DNA of 64,000 nucleotides from NCBI GenBank assembly GCA_040220235.1, contig JAVJTO010000063.1. One strand, given 5' to 3'. The notes beneath the pieces are model-generated. The model saw only the letters and a list, made by a program, of their open reading frames with translations. It was not told the DNA's origin and ran no database searches. Each line of letters starts with the position of its first letter. The first letter of the stretch is position 1. Both the position numbers and the translations under genes were made by a program. Source of the DNA: Coleofasciculus sp. B1-GNL1-01. GTDB taxonomy: Bacteria > Cyanobacteriota > Cyanobacteriia > Cyanobacteriales > Coleofasciculaceae. This document shows, in pieces, positions 44,266 through 60,699 of this stretch.

Positions 44266-47200
44266 CTAATTCACCCGTTGTATATTGGTTCGCTTCGGGT
44301 CAAGAATTTTCTGCCCTAAACTGGGGAATTTAACCGCAATACTCACTTTATTTCCCGAACCAAAAACATGGGTCACTTCTCCGACGCCAAAGGTGTCATG
44401 ACGCAGTAAATCACCTTTTTTCCACTCTTTCGAGTTTGCCGTTGAACTCGAGGATTTTGACGGATTTACAGTTGAGGCAGAAGGCGTTTGCTGTTTCACT
44501 TTCACCAAGGTACTGCTAATTAAGTCTTCAGGTAACTCATCTAAAAACTGAGACCGAACCGCTGGTTCACGATACCCATAGAGGCGACGTTCCCGGGCGT
44601 GGGCAAGAAAGAGTTGTTCTTGGGCGCGAGTAATTCCTACATAACAGAGACGGCGTTCTTCTTCTAAAGCAACCGGGTCATCTATCGTCCGGTTATGAGG
44701 GAAAAGTCCCTGTTCTAAACCCACCAGAAACACAACCGGAAATTCTAATCCTTTAGCCGAGTGCAGCGTCATTAACGATACCGCTTGTTGTCCATCTTCC
44801 AAATTATCTAAATCAGACGCCAGAGACGCATTTGCCAGAAATCCTTCTAGGCTGGTATCATCATTTTCTTCCTGAAATTGAACGACAGCATTATAGAGTT
44901 CATTGATATTTTCCAATCGGTTTTCCGCTTCGTCTGTGCCTTGGTTTTTTAGGTCATCAATATATCCCGATTCCTCCATGATAAACTTAATAATTTCTGC
45001 GGCTTCTAAGTTTTCTGTATTCTCTTGGCACTGCTTAATCAATTGGGCAAACCGATTAACCGCTTTAGCCGAACGTCCCGCAATTGTATTGACCGAGGTT
45101 TCATCCCGGATAATTTCCCAGAGGGGAGTTCCCAATTCTTGAGCCGCCAGCACTAAATTATCAATTGTGGCTTTACCAATACCCCGTCGTGGTGTATTGA
45201 TAATTCGCAATAAACTGACAGTATCACTGGGATTGGCAATCGTTCTTAGATAGGCTAAGGCATCTTTAACCTCTTTGCGATCGTAGAACTTCAATCCCCC
45301 GATAATCACATAACGCACTCGACCGCGCAGCGCATCTTCTAACGGACGAGATTGGGCATTCGTCCGATAAAGAATAGCAAAACTGCCCCAGCCTAGTTCT
45401 GGGTTTTGTTGATTCAGTTTCAGAATTTGTTGAACAACAAAATGAGCCTCTTCTAACTCATCCTCGGCGTGATGACAGTAAATGGCTTCCCCAAAACCGC
45501 GTGTGGGCTTTAGGATTTTGTCAATTCTCTGGGTATTTTGTTCAATTAAATAGTTAGCGGCTTGGAGAATATTTTCGCGCGAGCGATAGTTTTCCTCTAA
45601 TTTAACCATGGTGCGGGTCGTTTCATCAGGCAACCCATCACCAAAGTCTTGCTGAAATCCCAATAAGATGGTGAAATCTGCCATCCTAAAGGAATAAATT
45701 GAGTTATGGACTAGCATACGATTCGCTATATAAGTATGAGCCACATCGACTTCTAGGTCATACACGTCTCCCTCATACTCATCTTGCCAAACTTGCTCAA
45801 TTTCCACCTCTGTTAAGGTATCATCCACCTCGACTAGCACTTTCATTCCGGGGTGGAGATGAGATAAAGGCATAAAATAATAACTTGTGCCACTAATTAA
45901 GGCTTTGCGTTGAATTTCCAGTTGACCTGCATCTGCAATAGAATGCGCCATAGTTACCGCTTCTTTGTAGGAAACTCTCGCGGTTTCAACTCGATACCCC
46001 CGGCTATTTTTCCCAGAACGAATGGAAAAGCCAGCCGCTTCTAAGTTGGTTGCAATATCACGACGATTAGAACACCATTGAATGCGGTGATAACTCGCCG
46101 ATTTTTTATTGTCTAATCGAGGTGTACCAAACATAACCAGATTCAATGTCTGTCGGCGCAAACCATTCTGAGGACGGTAGTGGGGAAAGTCGGGATGCAG
46201 CCAGAGATCCTGCATTAATCGGTGAGCGTTGGTGATGGTATCAATTTCTTGGTATAGGCGAAAAATCCACTCATCATTCAGGCGCATGCGCCGACCTTTA
46301 CCATGAAATACTAGCGTTGGCAACCCATATTTAGCCGCATAATAGGCTTCATAGTAAGCCGCTTCTTCATAAGACGTCGTGGTTTTCAGTACCCAAAGCT
46401 TATCCCCATTTTCTTGGGCAATACGAACTTTAAAGCCGAGTTCATCGCATCGATAATCATTGTGACGTGAACTTTTAGTGATGCCGATGCGATAGCCGCG
46501 ATCGGCTCGGTACATCAGATATACATAATAATGTCCTTCAATGGGTGTCATTCTGGCAAGAACAATATGATGAGGTGTTCCCCGTAATACCTGTTCACCT
46601 GCCCGAATTGACCAGAGAGTTCCACAAAAGTATCCTTTTTGGATATGAGTGATTTGATGCGGGTAAAGTTGTTTTTGTCCGGTTGGTGATAGAACTTGGT
46701 CTCCCACGTTCAAGGTTTCAATGGGTTTCTCTCCGGCGGGGGTCAAAACCTTAGTTCCGGGTGGAAAACACTGATCGGCATCACCGACGACGAATACGGA
46801 GCGATCGCGCCAATCCCATTGGGTTTTTTCTGGTTCGCCGTTTGTGGTTAATAGGTGTACCAGTTCGTACTGAATCCGGTTGGTATCTTGATACTCATCC
46901 ACGAGAATATGGCGAAATTGATTGTGCCAATATCCCAGGACGGATTCGTTTTGTTGGAAGAGTTTTACGGGGACTAAAATTAGATCATCGAAGTCCAGAG
47001 CGTTATTCGCCGCTAACTGGTCTTGATAATGATGATAAACTTCAGCCGTAACTCGACCTCTATAATTCGATTGTTCTTTTTCAAAGGCTTGGGGCGATAA
47101 GCCTAAGTTTTTGGCATTGCTAATCGCGTAGCGAATGGTTCGGGGGTTAAATTTTTTATCGTCTAGGTTTAATTGTTTGGTGACGATGGTTTTAACCAGC

Positions 47201-47670
47201 GTTTGGGCATCGGATTCGTCAAAGATGGAAAAATTACGCTTCCATTGGCGTCCTTTTTCATCGGTATATTTATTGATGTCATAGCGGAGAATCCGGGCAA
47301 ACAGGCTATGAAACGTACCAATCCACAAGGGTTTAATGTATTTTTTATAGACACGCGATCGCAATTGGGTTTGTTCAAGTTCTGGAAGTAACTCCAAACG
47401 CTGACCCCGTGTTTGGGCGGCGAGTTGCTGGGCGAATAGGGTTTCAATCCGGGATTTCATCTCCCGTGCGGCTTTATTGGTAAAGGTAACCGCTAAAATG
47501 TTTTCGGGATCGACTTTATGGGTGAGAATCAGATTGGCGATGCGGTAGGTTAACGCCCTCGTCTTACCCGAACCCGCCCCCGCCACAACCAGCAAGGGAC
47601 CGCAGAAATGTTCGACGGCGCGACGTTGAGAGGGATTGAGGTGCGTCAGAAAGTCAGTTGATTGAGTCAT
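44266..47670 (-). CDS. pcrA: ATP-dependent DNA helicase PcrA/UvrD, intein-containing
   Basis: AGAGSGKT, TFTNKAA, DEYQDTN, GDADQ|intein|SIYSFR, LEENYRS, TLHSAKGLEF, EERRLCYVGITRA, C-terminal Tudor-like domain. Confidence 0.95.
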   Translation of the reverse strand: MTQSTDFLTHLNPSQRRAVEHFCGPLLVVAGAGSGKTRALTYRIANLILTHKVDPENILAVTFTNKAAREMKSRIETLFAQQLAAQTRGQRLELLPELEQTQLRSRVYKKYIKPLWIGTFHSLFARILRYDINKYTDEKGRQWKRNFSIFDESDAQTLVKTIVTKQLNLDDKKFNPRTIRYAISNAKNLGLSPQAFEKEQSNYRGRVTAEVYHHYQDQLAANNALDFDDLILVPVKLFQQNESVLGYWHNQFRHILVDEYQDTNRIQYELVHLLTTNGEPEKTQWDWRDRSVFVVGDADQCFPPGTKVLTPAGEKPIETLNVGDQVLSPTGQKQLYPHQITHIQKGYFCGTLWSIRAGEQVLRGTPHHIVLARMTPIEGHYYVYLMYRADRGYRIGITKSSRHNDYRCDELGFKVRIAQENGDKLWVLKTTTSYEEAAYYEAYYAAKYGLPTLVFHGKGRRMRLNDEWIFRLYQEIDTITNAHRLMQDLWLHPDFPHYRPQNGLRRQTLNLVMFGTPRLDNKKSASYHRIQWCSNRRDIATNLEAAGFSIRSGKNSRGYRVETARVSYKEAVTMAHSIADAGQLEIQRKALISGTSYYFMPLSHLHPGMKVLVEVDDTLTEVEIEQVWQDEYEGDVYDLEVDVAHTYIANRMLVHNSIYSFRMADFTILLGFQQDFGDGLPDETTRTMVKLEENYRSRENILQAANYLIEQNTQRIDKILKPTRGFGEAIYCHHAEDELEEAHFVVQQILKLNQQNPELGWGSFAILYRTNAQSRPLEDALRGRVRYVIIGGLKFYDRKEVKDALAYLRTIANPSDTVSLLRIINTPRRGIGKATIDNLVLAAQELGTPLWEIIRDETSVNTIAGRSAKAVNRFAQLIKQCQENTENLEAAEIIKFIMEESGYIDDLKNQGTDEAENRLENINELYNAVVQFQEENDDTSLEGFLANASLASDLDNLEDGQQAVSLMTLHSAKGLEFPVVFLVGLEQGLFPHNRTIDDPVALEEERRLCYVGITRAQEQLFLAHARERRLYGYREPAVRSQFLDELPEDLISSTLVKVKQQTPSASTVNPSKSSSSTANSKEWKKGDLLRHDTFGVGEVTHVFGSGNKVSIAVKFPSLGQKILDPKRTNIQRVN
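45703..46770 (-). mobile_element. Intein (356 aa) in helicase motif III
   Basis: Starts CFPPGTKVLT, has block B T.HH, block F VYDLEV and ends LVHN, followed by Ser. Removing it restores GDADQ-SIYSFR. Confidence 0.95.
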
Positions 47671-48635: not shown

Positions 48636-48923
48636 TTAAAACAACGATTCTAAATCCCGATACCCACTCACCACCCGCACAATTTCCACGCCATCCTCAA
48701 TCACTCGATAAAGAATGATGTAACCTAAGAGAGGAACACCCCGTAACGACGGTTCAATGTCAGCATAAGAACGCCCTATATTAGGAAACTTCACCAAGTT
48801 CTTACATTTCTGCTCAAACCCATTTACAAACCGTTCACCAGCCGCTAGACTCCGACTCAAAAAATAATCAGAAATCTCATCTAAATCCTGACTCGCTTCT
48901 GGAGAAATAATGTAACGGCTCAT
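48636..48923 (-). CDS. parE: Type II toxin, ParE/RelE family
   Basis: YIISPEASQDLDEI...FPNIGR...YIILYRV....VEIVRVVSGYRDL; overlaps the antitoxin stop. Confidence 0.9.
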   Translation of the reverse strand: MSRYIISPEASQDLDEISDYFLSRSLAAGERFVNGFEQKCKNLVKFPNIGRSYADIEPSLRGVPLLGYIILYRVIEDGVEIVRVVSGYRDLESLF

Positions 48924-49195
48924 TCTTGATTTTCACCCGCTTTGTGAAGCTTCTCCCGCAACCTAGCAATCACCACCTCCCCATCAATTCCTTCTCCTCT
49001 ATCAAGTTGTGCAATACCAACCGCTACTTTCCCCCGCGTTTCTTGCAGCCATTTTTGATACTGATTATCGCGTTCTTCAAGTAATCGCAACGCCTCAACA
49101 ATCACCTCATAAGCGCTTCCATACTTGCCACTTTTGAGCCTTTCTTGAATCAACTGCTCCTCTTCTGGTTTAAATGTAATATTCATCCTCTCCAA
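48920..49195 (-). CDS. parD: Type II antitoxin, ParD (RHH) family
   Basis: MNITF...I...LKSGKYGSAYEVIVEALRLLEE...GIAQLDRGE. Confidence 0.88.
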   Translation of the reverse strand: MERMNITFKPEEEQLIQERLKSGKYGSAYEVIVEALRLLEERDNQYQKWLQETRGKVAVGIAQLDRGEGIDGEVVIARLREKLHKAGENQE

Positions 49196-51944: not shown

Positions 51945-52188
51945 TCTCTAACTTTTTACCCATCTGTTCGATAACAAATTACCTTGTTCAATCTAGCGTT
52001 TTACAGTTGGGTGATGTACATTATCAAGGGCGCAAGCCTTGCGCCCCTACAGATTTCATGTAGGGTGGGCAAGATTGATAATCCTTGAAATTTGTTATAT
52101 CTTGCAGATGGTGATTAGAAATTATCGCTTTTAATTGTATTAATTATTAAGGTTTATTTATGATTAGTTGATGCAAAAAAATGTCTAA

Positions 52189-52836
52189 TCACCCCCAAGG
52201 GAGAGAAGGGCTTGATGCATCAGGATGTTGTTCTGGAACTTGAATTCCAGGAACCCAAATTCGTAATCTGTCCCATATATGACGCAGTGTCATATACACT
52301 TCTGTAATATCAGTAATCTCAGTTTGAGCATCAATTTTATCTACCTGAGCTTCTGCTTGCTCACACATCTGCTTAAGCTGCTCAATAACCCTCTGCCTAT
52401 CTTGTGAAGATCTTGCTCCCTGAAAATTATCTCGAATGAAGATAAAAATTTCAGTAAAAATTGGAATCACGGACGATGAATCAATAGCACATGAAATTGT
52501 GTCCGAATATCCCCACCAAATAGCTCCTATGTCTGCCGCTGATCTACCGAGTTCATTTGCCGTATGACAAGCAAAAGCATAAACGGTACGTTGACTTAGC
52601 AGTTGTACATCACCACAGGACAAAGCCACATCACCATTGTGACCTTTCAAGGCATTACGAACACCATGACACATGGCAAAGACAGGCAAAACATCAGCTT
52701 TAGACAATACGGCGATAAGTTCTTTACGTGTTGCTTTCTTTTCAAAAAGTGTGACACAATCCTCTGTTATAATTAGCTTGGCAATAGCGATATTTGCTTG
52801 AGTCGATGCGTCATAAGCGGGGACAAATACGATCAT
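52189..52836 (-). CDS. Putative clan CD (caspase/gingipain/CHAT-like) cysteine protease, single domain
   Basis: ATRKELIAVL helix, VFAMCHG (His57), VYAFACHT (Cys90), GAIWWGY; helical C-terminal half. Confidence 0.6.
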   Translation of the reverse strand: MIVFVPAYDASTQANIAIAKLIITEDCVTLFEKKATRKELIAVLSKADVLPVFAMCHGVRNALKGHNGDVALSCGDVQLLSQRTVYAFACHTANELGRSAADIGAIWWGYSDTISCAIDSSSVIPIFTEIFIFIRDNFQGARSSQDRQRVIEQLKQMCEQAEAQVDKIDAQTEITDITEVYMTLRHIWDRLRIWVPGIQVPEQHPDASSPSLPWG

Positions 52837-53609
52837 TCAGATTCTCTCCGATTCGCTTTTCGCTTCATAAAATCTCGTGCTACTCTAAGTACATCCGATG
52901 CATATTGCTGCCCAATTTCTGTACCTTCTTCAATTTGCTTTCGGAGTTCTTCTGCTGTAAACATCTCTCCTGTTGCCGTTTTCCAAATGACCGTAGTTGC
53001 CGGAATGATTTCACGAATAAGCCCAGCAAAAACATCCCGACTAATATTACGGGAAACACTTTCAAAATGAGGTGTTGGTTGTGCAGCTAATAAGCGATCA
53101 AGACCTTGTAAAAAGTTCCGCAGTGAAGGTGATCTTGCCTCCGCTCTATCAATATTGATATTTTTCACAAATTGCCAAGAACTAATAGTCTTGCCAAAAG
53201 CTAGTTCTGCATGACTTTTTGGACTTTTAATGTCTTCGGGTAACGGCAGTGCAGGTGAGACTTCAATTCCCCATTGAGTTTTGGCGTTTTCTATAGCTGT
53301 AATCTCATCGGCGAACAGCCAAGCCTCAACTTCTGGAATAGCACAAAAGACTCGTACAGAAGGATATCCTAACCGTCTGTGAGCCTTGTCTAAAGCCTCT
53401 GGAATACTTGCTGCATCACAGTTAACTAAAACAGCACAACTTCTTGTAATACCGGGAGGTAATCCTTGCAAGAAAGTTTTGAGGTTACTTTTAGCAACTG
53501 CATTTATTTTAATCTTATCTAGAGGATAATTAGCCGCTTCTAGAATCCAAGATATAATCTGAATGTGATTTTTATTTTCAACAATAAGTTGAATTGATCC
53601 ATCTTGCAT
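52833..53609 (-). CDS. DUF4276/TOPRIM-like protein with C-terminal extension
   Basis: LIVE (TOPRIM Glu), VLVNCD (degenerate DxD), AIPEVEAWLFAD, RSPSLRNF, plus about 80 extra C-terminal residues. Confidence 0.62.
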   Translation of the reverse strand: MQDGSIQLIVENKNHIQIISWILEAANYPLDKIKINAVAKSNLKTFLQGLPPGITRSCAVLVNCDAASIPEALDKAHRRLGYPSVRVFCAIPEVEAWLFADEITAIENAKTQWGIEVSPALPLPEDIKSPKSHAELAFGKTISSWQFVKNINIDRAEARSPSLRNFLQGLDRLLAAQPTPHFESVSRNISRDVFAGLIREIIPATTVIWKTATGEMFTAEELRKQIEEGTEIGQQYASDVLRVARDFMKRKANRRESE

Positions 53610-53860
53610 AATATCATAATACCTTAAATTAAAAACTTAAATAATAACTAAATCATAGGTTTAGTTATTTTTCTCATAAGTTAAGCATAGCAAGATTGGT
53701 ATATCCTGATCAATAAGCGTGACGAATTAGACTTATCTGCTAATTAGCTGACAATACTCTATCTAGGGGTTTATGTCCTCAATTAGCGATCCCACCTACT
53801 ACATATAGGAATTCTCTCTATTTGATGAACAGGTCTAGTGCTAATTTGAACAATCGCTAC

Positions 53861-54430: not shown

Positions 54431-54634
54431 TCATCCGTATTTTCAGTCATCCTTAACAAAGGACAAATGATATTAATTCCGTATACATCTTCATCCTTTG
54501 TTAATAGATAACTAACCTGTCAGTGTAATCCGTGTGACTAATCCTTCATCCCCCTACTCCCATCTCTCCAATAAATCCGTGAAATCAGTGTTTTGACGAA
54601 TGACAAATGACGAATGACAAATGACAAATGACAA

Positions 54635-55603
54635 TTAAGCCAACATTTCCTGCGCCCGCTTAATATTTTTACGAACCGATTCGGCTGACGTATGCAGGGC
54701 GGCGAGTTCGGTATCCGTGAGGTTAAGTTCCACAACTTTTTCCACACCTCGACATCCTAACCGCGTTGGGACACCAATGAAAATATCTTTTAAACCATAC
54801 TCCCCATCTAGGTAGGATGACACGGGCAAAAGTCGCGACTGATTATGTAAAATGGCTTCCACCATCGCGCAAGTCGAGGATGCAGGCGCGGAATACGCCC
54901 CCCCAGTTTTCATCAGATTCACAATTTCTGCGCCACCATGACGAGTTCGATCCACTAAACGATCAACTGTTTCCTCATCCATCAGTTCAGTAATCGGAAT
55001 CCCTCGCACTGTGGAGTAGCGGGGTAAGGGTACCATTAAATCGCCATGACCCCCTAAGACTAACCCACTGACATCCGCAATCGATACCCCTAATTCCATC
55101 GCAATAAAGGTTTGGAAACGGGCAGAATCCAGCATTCCCGCCATTCCCATCACCCGTGACGCGGGTAATCCTAATATTTGCCAGACCAAGTAGGTCATCA
55201 CATCCAGAGGATTTGTGACAATAATATACAAGGCATCCGGCGATCGCGCGATCGCTTTTTCCGCCACCTCAACCGCAATCTTGGCATTAATTTTAAGTAA
55301 ATCATCTCGACTCATCCCCGGTTTACGGGGTAAACCCGCCGTGATGATCACCACATCCGATCCGGTGGTATCCATATAGTCATTGGTGCCAAGAATCTCG
55401 CGGTTGTGACAATCCATCCCCTGTGCCTGCATTAAATCCAGGGCAATGCCTTGGGGAATACCGGGAACAATATCTAAAAGTACCACATTTGCCAAATTGC
55501 GTTGGGCAATCCGGTGCGCCAAGGTGCTACCGACGTGACCCGCGCCAATCACGGTGACGCGGTGATCATTGCAAGCGATAGGTAAATTCGAGGAAGATGC
55601 CAT
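54635..55603 (-). CDS. mdh: Malate dehydrogenase (LDH-like)
   Basis: IGAGHVG, TAGLPRKPGMSRDDLL..N, NPLD, LDSARF, GGHGD. The likely start is the ATG at 55603. Confidence 0.95.
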   Translation of the reverse strand: MASSSNLPIACNDHRVTVIGAGHVGSTLAHRIAQRNLANVVLLDIVPGIPQGIALDLMQAQGMDCHNREILGTNDYMDTTGSDVVIITAGLPRKPGMSRDDLLKINAKIAVEVAEKAIARSPDALYIIVTNPLDVMTYLVWQILGLPASRVMGMAGMLDSARFQTFIAMELGVSIADVSGLVLGGHGDLMVPLPRYSTVRGIPITELMDEETVDRLVDRTRHGGAEIVNLMKTGGAYSAPASSTCAMVEAILHNQSRLLPVSSYLDGEYGLKDIFIGVPTRLGCRGVEKVVELNLTDTELAALHTSAESVRKNIKRAQEMLA

Positions 55604-56151: not shown

Positions 56152-59100
56152 GTGAACCCCATCAACCTCGACCCAATCATCGCTGCAATCAGCGCGATCG
56201 CACGTCCAGCCGCCCCCCTACTCAAAAATAAGCTGGAACGGGACGAAACCGTCATCAAACTCCTGAAAAAATTTAATCTCGATCCCGAACATCCCCATCC
56301 TGACTTTACCAGCATTTATCAATACGCCTTTGTCGAATATGGTATCAGTAAACCCCAGCCAATTCTCGAACTGTTCCGCCAAAAAGAGATTCAACAGGCT
56401 TTTCGCCAAGCCTTCGATCGCAATGACCCCTCCATTCTCCTGCAACAAGGGGAAGCCTTTCTCGACGGATACGCCTTAGGGGATGAAATCCGAGAATTAA
56501 GAATTGACCCCAAGCGCGAATTTGCCGCCTTTGCTACCGTATTCATTCAAGTCGCCAAGCGATCGCGCACTCCAGCAGACGTTCTCACCAACCAGAAAAT
56601 CGACTCATTACACAAATCGATGAGAACCCTGCATGAACGGTTGGATAGACTCCCCACCTTAACCGGAATTCGTACCGAGATAGCGCGGTTGGCGGCACAG
56701 GAATCTCTATTATCAGCCGAGGAATCATCCACCGAAATCTCCTGTCGGGCGTTTGGTTTAGCCCAGCAGATGAAGGGTTGGTTTGAAACCCTGGGTTATG
56801 ACTTTGAACCCTATCAAATCTGGGATGATACACATTTTGAATGGATTGTCAACATTCCCGCCCGACGCGGATATGACCGGATTTTGGTCAGGGGAATTGA
56901 GGGAGAAGCGGGAATTCGGGATGTCACCGCCTTGCGAGAATCAGTGGATACTCAACGAACCGATGAAGGTTGGTTAGTCACCCAACGTCGCATCAGTCGC
57001 GCCGCCCGTGATGCGGTAGAAACGCGGGAAAATCGTGATTTATTTTGTTATACCTTTGATGAATTATTAGATGAATACGCAGATTTCCGGGACTATTTGG
57101 ACTGGTTAGAAACAGAGGTAAAATGGCGCGGGATTGATCAAAAGTATGTGCCGTTAGCTTGCAGCAAAGCAGAGATTGATCCGATGACTCAGCGTCAGAT
57201 TGCCGTGAGTCGTTACGATGAACGCGATGGCTGGATTGATGGGTATATTGACCTTTGGTTAGATGACCCAACAAAAGAGCATATTTCAATTTTAGGAGAA
57301 TTTGGTACAGGCAAAACCTGGTTTGCCTTCCACTATGCTTGGATAGCATTGCAACGGTATCAGGAAGCAAAAAAACGCGGTGTTTCTCGTCCTCGCTTAC
57401 CCTTAGTGATTACCCTGCGCGACTATGCCAAAGCTGTTGATGTGGAGAATGTTCTCGCGGGTTTCTTTTTTAGTCAGCATAATATTCGCCTGAATAGCAA
57501 AGTCTTTGATCAACTCAATCGCATGGGGAAATTGCTGCTAATTTTCGATGGCTTTGACGAAATGGCAGCCAAGGTTGATCGCCAGCAAATGATTAACAAC
57601 TTCTGGGAATTGGCGAAAGTAGTTGTACCCGGAAGCAAAGTTATTTTAACCTGTCGCACTGAACATTTTCCCGAAGCAAAAGAAGGACGAGCGTTGCTGA
57701 ATGCGGAATTGCAAGCCTCGACTGCGAATTTGACCGGGGAAACGCCTCAGTTTGAGGTGTTGGAATTGGAGAAGTTTGAGGATGACCAAATCCGTCAGGT
57801 TTTATCGTTTCAAGCTCAACCTGCCACAGTTGAAAAGGTGATGGAAAATCCTCAGTTATTGGATTTAGCCCGTCGTCCAGTTATGACGGATTTGATCTTA
57901 GAAGCATTGCCAGATATTGAAGCAGGTAAACCTGTGGATATGTCCAGGATTTATCTGTATGCGGTAAAGCGCAAGATGGAACGGGATATTAAAGCTGAAC
58001 GCACGTTTACATCGTTAGCTGATAAGCTTTATTTTCTGTGTGAGTTGGCGTGGGAGATGTTATCAACAGATCAGATGAGTCTCAATTATCGGCAATTTCC
58101 CGATCGCATTCGTCGGTTATTTGGTTCAGTAGTTCGGGAGGAAAAGGATTTAGACCATTGGCATTATGACATGATGGGGCAATCGATGCTGGTTCGGAAT
58201 GCGGATGGCGATTATACTCCAGCGCATCGTTCGCTATTGGAGTTTTTTGTCGCCTATAAATTTGCCGCCGAGTTGGGGGTATTGGCGGCTGATTTTACCA
58301 AATTGGCTCAAGCACAATCTTATATTGATGACAGTGCTACACCTGAGAATTATACCTGGTCATCCTATTTTAATTGCCAGATAGATAAGGCAGGAAAAAT
58401 CATGCAAATTGCGCCGTCAAAAGGATTTAAGAGTGAGTCACTAGCGCAATTACGCCAGACATTAGGACAAGCACCGTTGACAAAAGCGGTAATGGATTTA
58501 ATGATACCGATGCTTGATTTAGCTTCTCCAACTGCGGTTAAGAGTAAAGTAACCGAGGAATCTTGCTCCCCTCTCCTTGCAGGAGAGGGGCTGGGGGAGA
58601 GGTCAAAAAAATCGTCGCTTCTGGAAATTCTGGAAGCAACACGGGGTAAAAGTGAAGATGAAGTGGGATATGTTGGGGGGAACGCAGCGACCCTAATGGT
58701 GAAGGTTGATCAGGCGGGGTTAGAAGGTAAAGATCTCAGTCGCGCAGTTATTAAAGGCGCTGACTTTAGCAATGCCAGCCTACGCCATGTTAATTGTACT
58801 AATGCAAATCTGGCTAATTCTGTTTTTACAAAAGTATTTGGTTTTGTCTTATCAGTAGCATATAGCCCTAACGGTCAAGTTTTTGCGACAGGCGAGGCTA
58901 ATGGAAAAATTCGCTTGTGGCAAGTTGCTAATGGTCAACAAATATTAATTTTTCAAGGACATACTGATTGGGTAAGTTCAGTTGCTTTTAGCCCTGATGG
59001 GAAAATCCTAGCTAGTGCTAGTCATGATATGACAGTAAAGCTATGGGATACAAACAGTGGAAAATGCTTGAAAACTTTACATGGACATTCAAATCGGATA

Positions 59101-60699
59101 AGAACAGTAGCTATAAGTTTAGATGGGATGATCCTTGCCAGTGGAGGTGATGATCAGACAGTAAAATTATGGAATGCATCAACTGGAGAATGCTTAAACA
59201 CTTTAAAAGGACACCTTGGTAGAATATGGTCAATAGCTATAAATTGTGACAGTAAAATTTTAGCTAGCGGCGGTTCTGATCATACGGTTAAATTATGGGA
59301 CATTACCACGGGTAAATGCTTGAAAAATTTGCAGGGACATACTAGCCATGTACAGTCCATAGCTATTAGTTTAGACGGTGCAATTTTAGCGAGTGGAAAT
59401 GATGACGAAACTGTCAAGCTATGGAATATAAATACAGGTAAATGTTTTAAAACTTTGCAACAACATACAAGTCGAGTTCGGTCAGTTGCCATTAGTCCAG
59501 ATGGTAAAACATTAGCAAGTGGTGGAGGCGATACCCTAGTTAAAATCTGGAATATCGAAACTGGACAATGCACAAAAAATTTGCCCGGGCATACCCGCGA
59601 AATACTTTCATTAGCGTTCAGTCCTGATAGCAAAAGTGTAATTAGTAGTAGCCATGACCAGACATTAAAAATTTGGGATATTCACACGGAGAAATGTCTG
59701 AAGACATTACAGGGACATAAGCATTGGATAAATTCTGTAGCCATCAGTTCTGATAATACAACTCTTGTTAGTGGTAATGAAGATTCAACAGTGAAGCTCT
59801 GGAATCTTCGCACTGGAGAATGTTTGCAAACTTTATCTGATCATACAGATTGGATTGATTCAGTCACTCTTACCACTGACGGTAAAATTTTAGCGAGTGG
59901 TAGTGGGGATAAAACAGCAAAAATTTGGGATGTTTCTATGGGGAAGTGCTTAAAAACATTGCAAACAGATAATAGCCCAGTGTTTTCAATCGCAATTAGT
60001 CGTAATAGTAAGATTTTGGTAACTGGGGGTAATGACAAAAGAATTAAGTTATGGAATATTCTTACAGGAGATTGTGTGAACATCTTACAGGAGCATACAA
60101 ATGGAGTTAGGTCAGTGTTAATTAGTCGTGACGATACAACTGTATTTAGCTGCGATATTGATGGTATAATTAAATCATGGGATATAAAAACAGGTAAATG
60201 CATAAATACCTTTCAAGGGCATAATCATGCCGTATGGTCATTGGCTATTTGTTCTAACGGTAAAATTCTTGCCAGTGCAAGTAGCGACCAGACAATAAAG
60301 CTATGGGATACCACGACAGGAAAATGTCTCAAAACGCTCCAAGGGCATACTGATAAGGTGTCTTCAGTAGCCATTAATGTTGACAGTACAATACTAGCTA
60401 GTGGAAGTAGCGATCAAACCATAAAACTATGGAATATTCACAGTGGAGAATGTCTCAGAACCTTACAGGGTCATACAAATCGCGTACAGTCGGTAGCACT
60501 GAGTCCTGACGGTGAAATCTTAGCCAGTGGTAGTTATGACGAAACAATTAAAGTTTGGGATGTGAAATCGGGCAAGTGTATAAAAACTTTAGTAAACAAG
60601 CCCTATGTGAACATGAATATCACGGGTGTTACAGGTTTAACCGAAGCTGAGAAAACCGCACTTAAAACTTTAGGCGCAGTAGAACATAGAGCATCATAG
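56152..60699 (+). CDS. NLR-like protein: N-terminal helical domain, degenerate Mrr-like REase, NACHT NTPase, pentapeptide repeat, about 14 WD40 repeats
   Basis: [43 protein letters not shown], repeated GH...V.S.A.S.DG..LASGS.D.T.KLW. Confidence 0.92.

Follow-up and report, generated by a model that had tools for sequence, protein, structure and literature searches.

What does a TOPRIM protein do beside a caspase-like protease when the ATPase usually found with such proteins is missing? The question is raised by two overlapping genes in a 64,000-nucleotide stretch of DNA from Coleofasciculus sp. B1-GNL1-01 (hereafter the window), which an earlier note, made from the letters alone, had proposed as an undescribed defence or toxin module. 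Gene 1 (52833..53609, minus strand) encodes a 258-aa TOPRIM protein of OLD/DUF4276 type that also has a conserved C-terminal domain, and gene 2 (52189..52836, minus strand) encodes a 215-aa stand-alone clan CD (caspase/CHAT/gingipain-fold) cysteine protease without a sensor domain. The sequence features behind that proposal are present: both minus-strand open reading frames (258 and 215 aa); their ATGA overlap at 52833-52836; the LIVE, NCD, AIPEVEAWLFAD and RSPSLRNF motifs in the translation of gene 1; the HG and AC motifs in that of gene 2; and the gene 2 His and Cys codons at 52666-52668 and 52567-52569. Family matches confirmed xseB and a Uma2 gene as the flanking genes. Among named homologues, the nearest comes from Coleofasciculus (92% identity).

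Gene 2 encodes a stand-alone clan CD protease

The predicted structure of gene 2 (pLDDT 96.7, pTM 0.93) has SAVED-CHAT (8tl0) as its top structural match in VIA-align (Z 11.3, rmsd 3.4, 158 aligned), with DdvA (Z 10.4), separase (10.2) and gingipains R and K (10.1) also matching; the top 30 rows are all caspase-fold chains. Foldseek, with caspase-7 as its best match (E 9.5e-4), arrived at the same fold. A profile search returned 564 representatives at E<=0.001, including 120 at E<=1e-30. In an alignment of 140 near-full-length sequences with a mean column identity of 24%, only Asp9 (52810..52812, minus strand), His57 (52666..52668, minus strand), Gly58 and Cys90 (52567..52569, minus strand) are invariant (140/140). 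The accessible part of PMC4357240 locates the clan CD dyad behind strands 3 (His-Gly) and 4 (Cys), and gene 2 shows this placement: His57-Gly58 follows the strand at 52-55, and Cys90, the predicted catalytic nucleophile, follows the strand at 84-88. The two structural searches and the 140/140 residues bear out the clan CD fold and His-Cys dyad motif first proposed from the sequence.

Asp9 sits at the boundary of loop 1 and helix 1, an element that sets P1 preference in clan CD (PMC4357240, accessible part). By analogy it is possibly an S1-pocket residue or a helix cap, and its placement hints at a basic P1, though a cap would also explain it. Asp9 and Asn15, the latter present in 116/140 homologues, are candidate S1 residues only.

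Gene 2 had no match in Pfam, PADLOC or PHROGs, and it did not reach the Pfam cut-offs for CHAT, Peptidase C14 or C25; CHAT was touched by 3/140 homologues (best E 0.004). The gene 2 profile gave 0 matches among PDB sequences. One NCBIfam match, at E 0.031, was judged to be chance.

Gene 1 encodes a TOPRIM protein with an eroded catalytic site in cyanobacteria

Gene 1 falls slightly below the Pfam cut-off for DUF4276 (E 1e-6; 29.6 bits against 30.2) and matches PADLOC HEC-01B at E 6.5e-7. In its model (pLDDT 90.9), structural alignment and motif residues assign a TOPRIM plus helical domain to residues 1-176 (53082..53609, minus strand). Residues 2-175 align with the C-terminal region of BpOLD in VIA-align (Z 10.4, rmsd 4.1, 165 aligned), and the model also aligns with TsOLD (Z 9.0), GajA (8.2) and AriB (7.5), so the TOPRIM assignment of the earlier note holds on these alignments, the best being that to BpOLD. 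Foldseek of the same model against PDB and BFVD gave no match at E<=0.001.

Mapped by motif rather than by superposed coordinates, positions 11, 15, 63, 65, 95 and 131 of gene 1 correspond to E400, E404, D455, D457, E508 and K562, catalytic residues of BpOLD taken from the accessible part of PMC6755086. We found 126 homologues of gene 1 and aligned 104 sequences, the query and 103 of the 120 listed matches. The family has E, D, D, D, E and K at these positions: by motif mapping, all five OLD-type metal-binding acids are kept in 81/104 homologues, and position 131 is Lys or Arg in 96/104. The window copy reads E, H, N, D, E and K; two acids are replaced, by His15 and Asn63, and the full metal-binding set is absent. 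The sequence NCD does stand where DxD is expected, as the earlier note had seen, but that note overlooked that this is lineage-specific erosion, the family having DxD. In a tree of 46 sequences the six cyanobacterial copies form one clade (support 0.96), and 6/6 have lost at least one catalytic acid, each differently, with the protease dyad intact. BpOLD tolerates single substitutions; strong impairment was seen in a mutant with four residues changed over two sites (PMC6755086, accessible part). Because the nuclease site has eroded in the cyanobacterial lineage, the window copy, judged from its residues, may have lost catalysis or act as a weak nickase.

A flexible linker (residues ~177-189; 53043..53081, minus strand; pLDDT <50 at 181-188) follows and is a candidate cleavage region. 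It contains Arg187, which is present in 81/104 homologues and thus not universal; Arg191, just past the linker, is present in 99/104. The C-terminal domain (residues ~190-258; 52836..53042, minus strand) is modelled as a helix, a beta-hairpin and two helices. These ~70 aa are the best-conserved part of the module, with a mean identity over 25 loci of 0.51, against 0.40 for the TOPRIM part and 0.34 for the protease. Searches with 32 members found no Pfam family below E 0.005, and the Atlas clusters gave no usable match. The earlier note had suggested that the protease removes this region as an extension. Because the domain is the best conserved in the module, that idea has a serious rival: the domain may restrain the protease rather than be a cleaved extension.

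Comparison with L056, L002 and L005 gave dN/dS values of 0.17-0.19 (TOPRIM part), 0.08-0.16 (C-terminal domain) and 0.15-0.23 (protease); both genes are under purifying selection (0.08-0.23 overall). The near-identical L055 offered too few changes for judgement.

Two gene 1 homologues carry N-terminal extensions in which Pfam found no named family. The extension at L025:1139-3223 is ~440 aa long and holds an RxxxxH segment, which we take to be a HEPN-like motif; that of P0110 is ~100 aa long and winged-helix-like by eye.

The two genes are conserved as a pair

We found 45 metagenome loci with gene 1 and counted for pairing the 40 that reach its C-terminal end, excluding L048 and L049 (cut by contig ends) and L050-L052 (a partial TOPRIM without the C-terminal domain). 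The protease lies directly downstream of gene 1 in 31/40; the other nine comprise one locus with too little DNA, one with a broken protease start and seven orphans in three lineages. Clustering at 90% identity left 26 of 32 clusters paired. In loci found through the protease, gene 1 lies upstream in 6/6, all of them cyanobacterial; at one of these, L004, a frameshift interrupts gene 1 close to its start, beside an intact protease. Homologues of the two genes are thus co-located in both directions, as the reading of a two-gene module had required. Pairwise identities of the two genes correlate (Mantel rho 0.76, 0/2000 permutations), a result that shared descent would also give.

Two loci on short contigs keep all gene 1 catalytic residues: L022, an orphan with no protease start in the 204 downstream bases, and L028, in which the protease start is broken. 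Five orphans (L029, L030, L033, L037 and L038) form a clade in which gene 1, on its own, precedes a threonine-synthase-like gene (by eye) and Asn replaces the first aspartate of DxD.

The named homologues of gene 1 belong to Pseudomonas, Pantoea, Thermoanaerobaculia, Myxococcales and Parabeggiatoa, and conservation of the pair extends from cyanobacteria to Acidobacteria, Myxococcales and Pseudomonas. The cassette is rare, occurring in 1/401 genomes of the phylum and, within the genus, in 2/8 other genomes. Searches with each of the two genes and with divergent homologues gave no match in annotated phage, plasmid and E. coli collections (four queries for plasmids), and scans of viral contigs turned up one prophage contig and nothing else.

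The ATPase usual beside DUF4276-type proteins is indeed missing, as the earlier note had said: there is none in the window and none conserved beside the pair among 125 neighbour ORFs at 27 loci. The sole match to AriA, HEC-01A or mad3 models among these ORFs is a Ppl-like gene at L047, 3.3 kb away.

The pair lies in a variable segment of the genome

A DNA search of the genus and junction alignment place the pair in a variable segment at 51966..53740, which is replaced by 33 bases in the relative G420. Contigs of four RNA sequencing runs (X2, X3, X4 and X6) join 51965 to 53741, indicating relatives with an empty site, and G416, G418 and G420 each have the xseB-Uma2 site without the cassette on one contig. 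This indel among close relatives supports the proposed mobility of the pair.

The compositional signs of transfer fared less well. The pair is AT-rich as described, with a GC content of 40.6% against 45.5% for the genome, but the signal is weak, since 6.7% of 6004 equal-sized genome windows are equally low. HIP1 is missing from the pair, as described, but this is uninformative because only 1.15 sites are expected and P(0)=0.32 by chance. The palindrome at ~52028-52050 is a genome-wide repeat with 16 exact copies and 46 copies with <=2 mismatches; it is also present at the cassette-free G416 site and therefore lies outside the cassette. We accordingly rejected the HIP1 absence and the palindrome as evidence of transfer. 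No terminal repeats or target-site duplication were found at the cassette beyond chance-level 12-15-mers, and promoter-like sites are at chance level (7 vs 6.4).

Insertion sites are varied and lie beside housekeeping genes. Our neighbourhood scan covered the 125 ORFs, picked by hand, at 27 loci, many with short flanks. Thoeris and McrBC-like genes lie beside the pair at L042, type III R-M near it at L046, a type VI retron and the Ppl-like gene at L047, and a SIR2 protein and methyltransferase at L024; L040 and L015 have weaker AbiJ/SIR2/pAgo-like matches. In L043 the pair sits between prophage terminase and portal genes, with a GC of 0.48 against 0.62 for the locus; in L034 it follows a tail gene and a resolvase at a prophage site, and in L044 it is near an integrase. 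At most of the remaining loci, and in the window, the surroundings are housekeeping genes. Named defence systems, complete or nearly so, occur at 4/27 loci (6/27 with looser criteria), against 1/14 random windows of the host genome, a control drawn from that one genome. Some PADLOC match is present in 11/14 control windows, one of which has a full DISARM system. The strict count leaves out PADLOC matches at L026 (endonuclease-III-like by eye), L006 (AAA), L002 (Uma2-type PDC-S03) and L034 (candidate PDC-S12). From 4/27 against 1/14, no enrichment near defence genes is demonstrated. The defence role proposed earlier remains plausible, but it draws nothing from enrichment in defence islands; it is the domains, the mobility and individual loci that support it.

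Several other genes came to light in passing. At L042:4756-5634, a 292-aa ORF beside the pair and Thoeris is possibly caspase-like (hhalign 5%; PHROG 38219, E 3e-6). The host genome has a DISARM-like cluster (DrmE, A, B, C) with a PD-T4-6-like kinase at L098 (G000:C135:5490-16890). The window itself holds a UvrD/PcrA helicase with an intein-like insert of ~350 aa (44266-47670, minus strand), a ParD-ParE toxin-antitoxin pair (48636-49195, minus strand), a heptamer tandem array (54598-54640; the genome has 109 arrays of at least 3 units) and a bacterial NLR-like gene encoding a 1515-aa WD40 protein with NNH5 and NACHT-associated inactive restriction-endonuclease domains (56152-60699, plus strand).

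Related proteases are paired with a small protein instead of a TOPRIM protein

Distant relatives of gene 2 (E 5e-17 to 1e-7 against the 140-sequence profile) are preceded by no TOPRIM: at four loci a 109-118-aa protein stands there, and at L057 two other ORFs do. In this sister two-gene module (L058:996-2046, L079:1372-2360, L082:1495-2503 and L083:828-1842), the small protein, which belongs to no known family, overlaps or abuts the protease. Five loci were reached from an intact small gene; two of them have an intact protease and three lack one. Both sister genes are decayed in two further genomes.

The end of the small protein resembles the C-terminal domain of gene 1 in the expected register, a suggestive likeness at the sequence level that falls short of established homology. 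For L079, the match of this end to the C-terminal domain was beaten by 0/1000 shuffles and by 2/1500 real windows, the compared segment having been picked after inspection. Of eight small proteins compared with shuffles, one was clearly better, two were marginally better and five were not better in either profile. Profile comparison by hhalign gave a probability of 1.8% untrimmed and 4.1% with trimmed profiles, the latter beating 149/150 column shuffles, and a first HMM test of the C-terminal domain against the small sister proteins gave 3.6 bits, with shuffles reaching 6.4.

At L057:112-2127, a 160-aa ORF and a homing-endonuclease-like ORF (by eye) precede a protease that resembles gene 2 and carries a hydrophobic segment at its C terminus; the locus looks foreign to its cyanobacterial bin (7% contamination).

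Comparison with known systems

The comparisons below refer to the accessible parts of the cited texts. The pair shares with Canu, which is described together with the trypsin/MBL nuclease-protease pairs of Hachiman, AVAST and Lamassu (Tuck et al., PMC12799240), a clan CD protease gene adjoining that of a nuclease, with cleavage by the protease as the proposed means of activation and an antiphage logic; Canu and the MBL pairs are the precedent for protease-activated nucleases (PMC12799240, PMC12642450). If the protease does gate the nuclease here, the pair would work as they do. The parts differ. The Canu nuclease has an MBL fold gated by internal loops, whereas the nuclease here is a TOPRIM with a folded C-terminal domain; the Canu caspase carries Ig/TPR domains and comes with a third gene (CanB), whereas the protease here is a bare 215-aa domain. 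The nuclease lies downstream of the caspase in Canu and upstream here, which places the pair outside Canu. The accessible text of PMC12799240 has 0 occurrences of 'toprim'.

Gene 1 shares the TOPRIM-plus-helical nuclease fold of OLD, Gabija GajA, PARIS AriA-AriB, HEC-01, MADS Mad4 and Menshen DUF4276, and most members of its family keep the two-metal residues of these nucleases (ABC ATPase-TOPRIM systems: 10.1101/2024.01.29.577857, PMC10568477, PMC12065111). All of these systems need a fused or adjacent ABC ATPase, however, and the pair, having none, does not belong to them; where OLD, Gabija, PARIS and HEC-01 have the ATPase, it has a protease and an extra C-terminal domain. The arrangement in which a small gene lies upstream of one for a caspase-like or serine protease, with a latent effector, is shared with the MBL and alpha/beta-hydrolase modules and the Pepco and EACC1 modules (PMC12642450), but their proteases, unlike gene 2, are fused to sensor domains. 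A TOPRIM effector has 0 occurrences in the accessible text of that source.

The clan CD fold of gene 2 is also that of the type IV Thoeris effector, SAVED-CHAT/PCaspase and Craspase Csx29, which are precedents for giving a protease the executioner or initiator role. Those systems are activated by a nucleotide signal or CRISPR RNA via TIR, SAVED or TPR/Cas7-11 partners. Such partners are absent from the pair here.

Term searches found no such pair in the accessible text of PMC13069673, PMC10910872, 10.1101/2024.10.26.620412 and PMC13552941, and the relevant terms are absent from the DefensePredictor and Mordret preprints. Full-text literature searches returned no description of it in the text they reached, and it may be listed, unnamed, elsewhere. 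Within the searched libraries and literature the pair matches no described system, in keeping with the novelty first claimed for it. This coupling of a TOPRIM nuclease to a stand-alone clan CD protease is real and conserved, and apparently undescribed.

Discussion

What might the two proteins do together? We tentatively favour, with a little less than even confidence, the reading that the family is an ATPase-free, protease-gated TOPRIM nuclease module that acts in conflict, probably as an abortive antiphage system. We infer binding, cleavage and its site, the substrate, the trigger and the antiphage role along the following lines. The gene 1 product would be a latent OLD-type TOPRIM nuclease whose C-terminal domain keeps it inactive and serves as docking place for the clan CD protease translated with it. 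On a trigger, the His-Cys protease would cut the gene 1 product in or near the linker (residues ~177-191), and the nuclease set free in this way would attack DNA or tRNA, with proteolysis standing in for the ABC ATPase that gates the OLD, Gabija and PARIS nucleases. We favour this because the family has two intact active sites encoded in one operon, a linker, a conserved tail and no ATPase, and because of the L022 orphan, whose intact residues fit a self-inhibited pro-nuclease. A complex prediction of the pair scored 0.48, against 0.00 for the best control (the runs shared at least 85% of their contacts, with a partner pLDDT of 86 or more), and lends weak support to predicted binding of the two products: among passes, scores of at most 0.60 account for 18/157 solved complexes and for both passing mismatches of 215. 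Several observations speak against a gated nuclease. The cyanobacterial catalytic acids are lost while the protease dyad stays intact; the C-terminal domain exceeds the nuclease in conservation (0.51 vs 0.40), which would not be expected of a gating loop that can be discarded; and related proteases pair with a small TOPRIM-less protein. No conserved sensor gene was found, most loci have housekeeping surroundings and show no enrichment of defence systems (4/27 vs 1/14), and the linker arginines are not universal (Arg187 in 81/104).

The same observations bear on the main alternative, which we consider somewhat unlikely but serious: the protease would act as executioner, gene 1 would supply both its restraint and its sensor, and the C-terminal domain would bind the protease and inhibit or license it, much as an antitoxin does a toxin. 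The TOPRIM would then sense nucleic acid damage or bait phage inhibitors of OLD, Gabija and PARIS nucleases, and its engagement would release the protease to cut host proteins. The gene order fits, with the partner upstream, the enzyme downstream and an ATGA overlap, and type IV Thoeris, which uses a caspase-like effector (PMC13069673, accessible part), is a precedent. Gene 1 occurs without the protease in 7/40 loci of three lineages and the protease never without gene 1 (6 loci), although this protease-first sample is cyanobacterial only. The dyad is invariant against cyanobacterial TOPRIM sites that erode under continued purifying selection, and L004 keeps an intact protease beside a frameshifted gene 1; a pure decoy, however, would have no need of the full catalytic set kept in 81/104 homologues. 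The sister module, in which a related protease has only the 109-118-aa protein (L058, L079, L082, L083), and the likeness of that protein's end to the C-terminal domain (L079 shuffles, trimmed profiles) point the same way, but homology between the two is not established (hhalign 1.8% and 4.1%). A variant that we think unlikely takes this further: the C-terminal domain would be a portable caspase-partner module, found alone upstream of related proteases and fused to a TOPRIM here, that restrains a sensor-less protease, and the TOPRIM would be both latent nuclease and bait, so that phage inhibitors of OLD, Gabija and PARIS nucleases trip the protease.

The remaining two explanations change the purpose or the polarity of the pair. 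With the same biochemistry, it could be a selfish addiction or stress cassette that acts by post-segregational killing or dormancy and has no antiphage role. Its patchy spread (1/401 phylum genomes, 2/8 genus genomes), its varied insertion sites beside housekeeping genes and the lack of demonstrated defence enrichment (4/27 vs 1/14) would suit such a cassette, which we nonetheless regard as improbable: several unrelated loci lie in defence clusters or at prophage cargo positions, with GC below that of the phage in L043, and the plasmid collection gave no match to four queries. Least probable by our estimate is a constitutively toxic nuclease for which the protease is the antidote, cleaving it until infection stops protease synthesis or activity. 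Tight gene coupling and the invariant dyad agree with this, as does the loss of the first DxD aspartate in the L029, L030, L033, L037 and L038 orphans, expected once the antidote is gone; L022 and L028, however, keep their catalytic residues without an intact adjacent protease, on short contigs whose genomes could encode a protease elsewhere.

In the accessible literature, described TOPRIM defence nucleases are under ABC ATPase or retron control and described caspase-like defence proteases carry or adjoin a sensor; the pair here has none of these. If the protease gates the nuclease, as we tentatively prefer, the family would be a new effector class in protease-activated immunity, in which proteolysis can replace an ATPase switch. 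If gene 1 instead restrains the protease, its C-terminal domain would be a new caspase inhibitor or activator domain, and a portable partner module, if true, would bring both an ATPase-free class of TOPRIM immunity and a new mode of caspase regulation.
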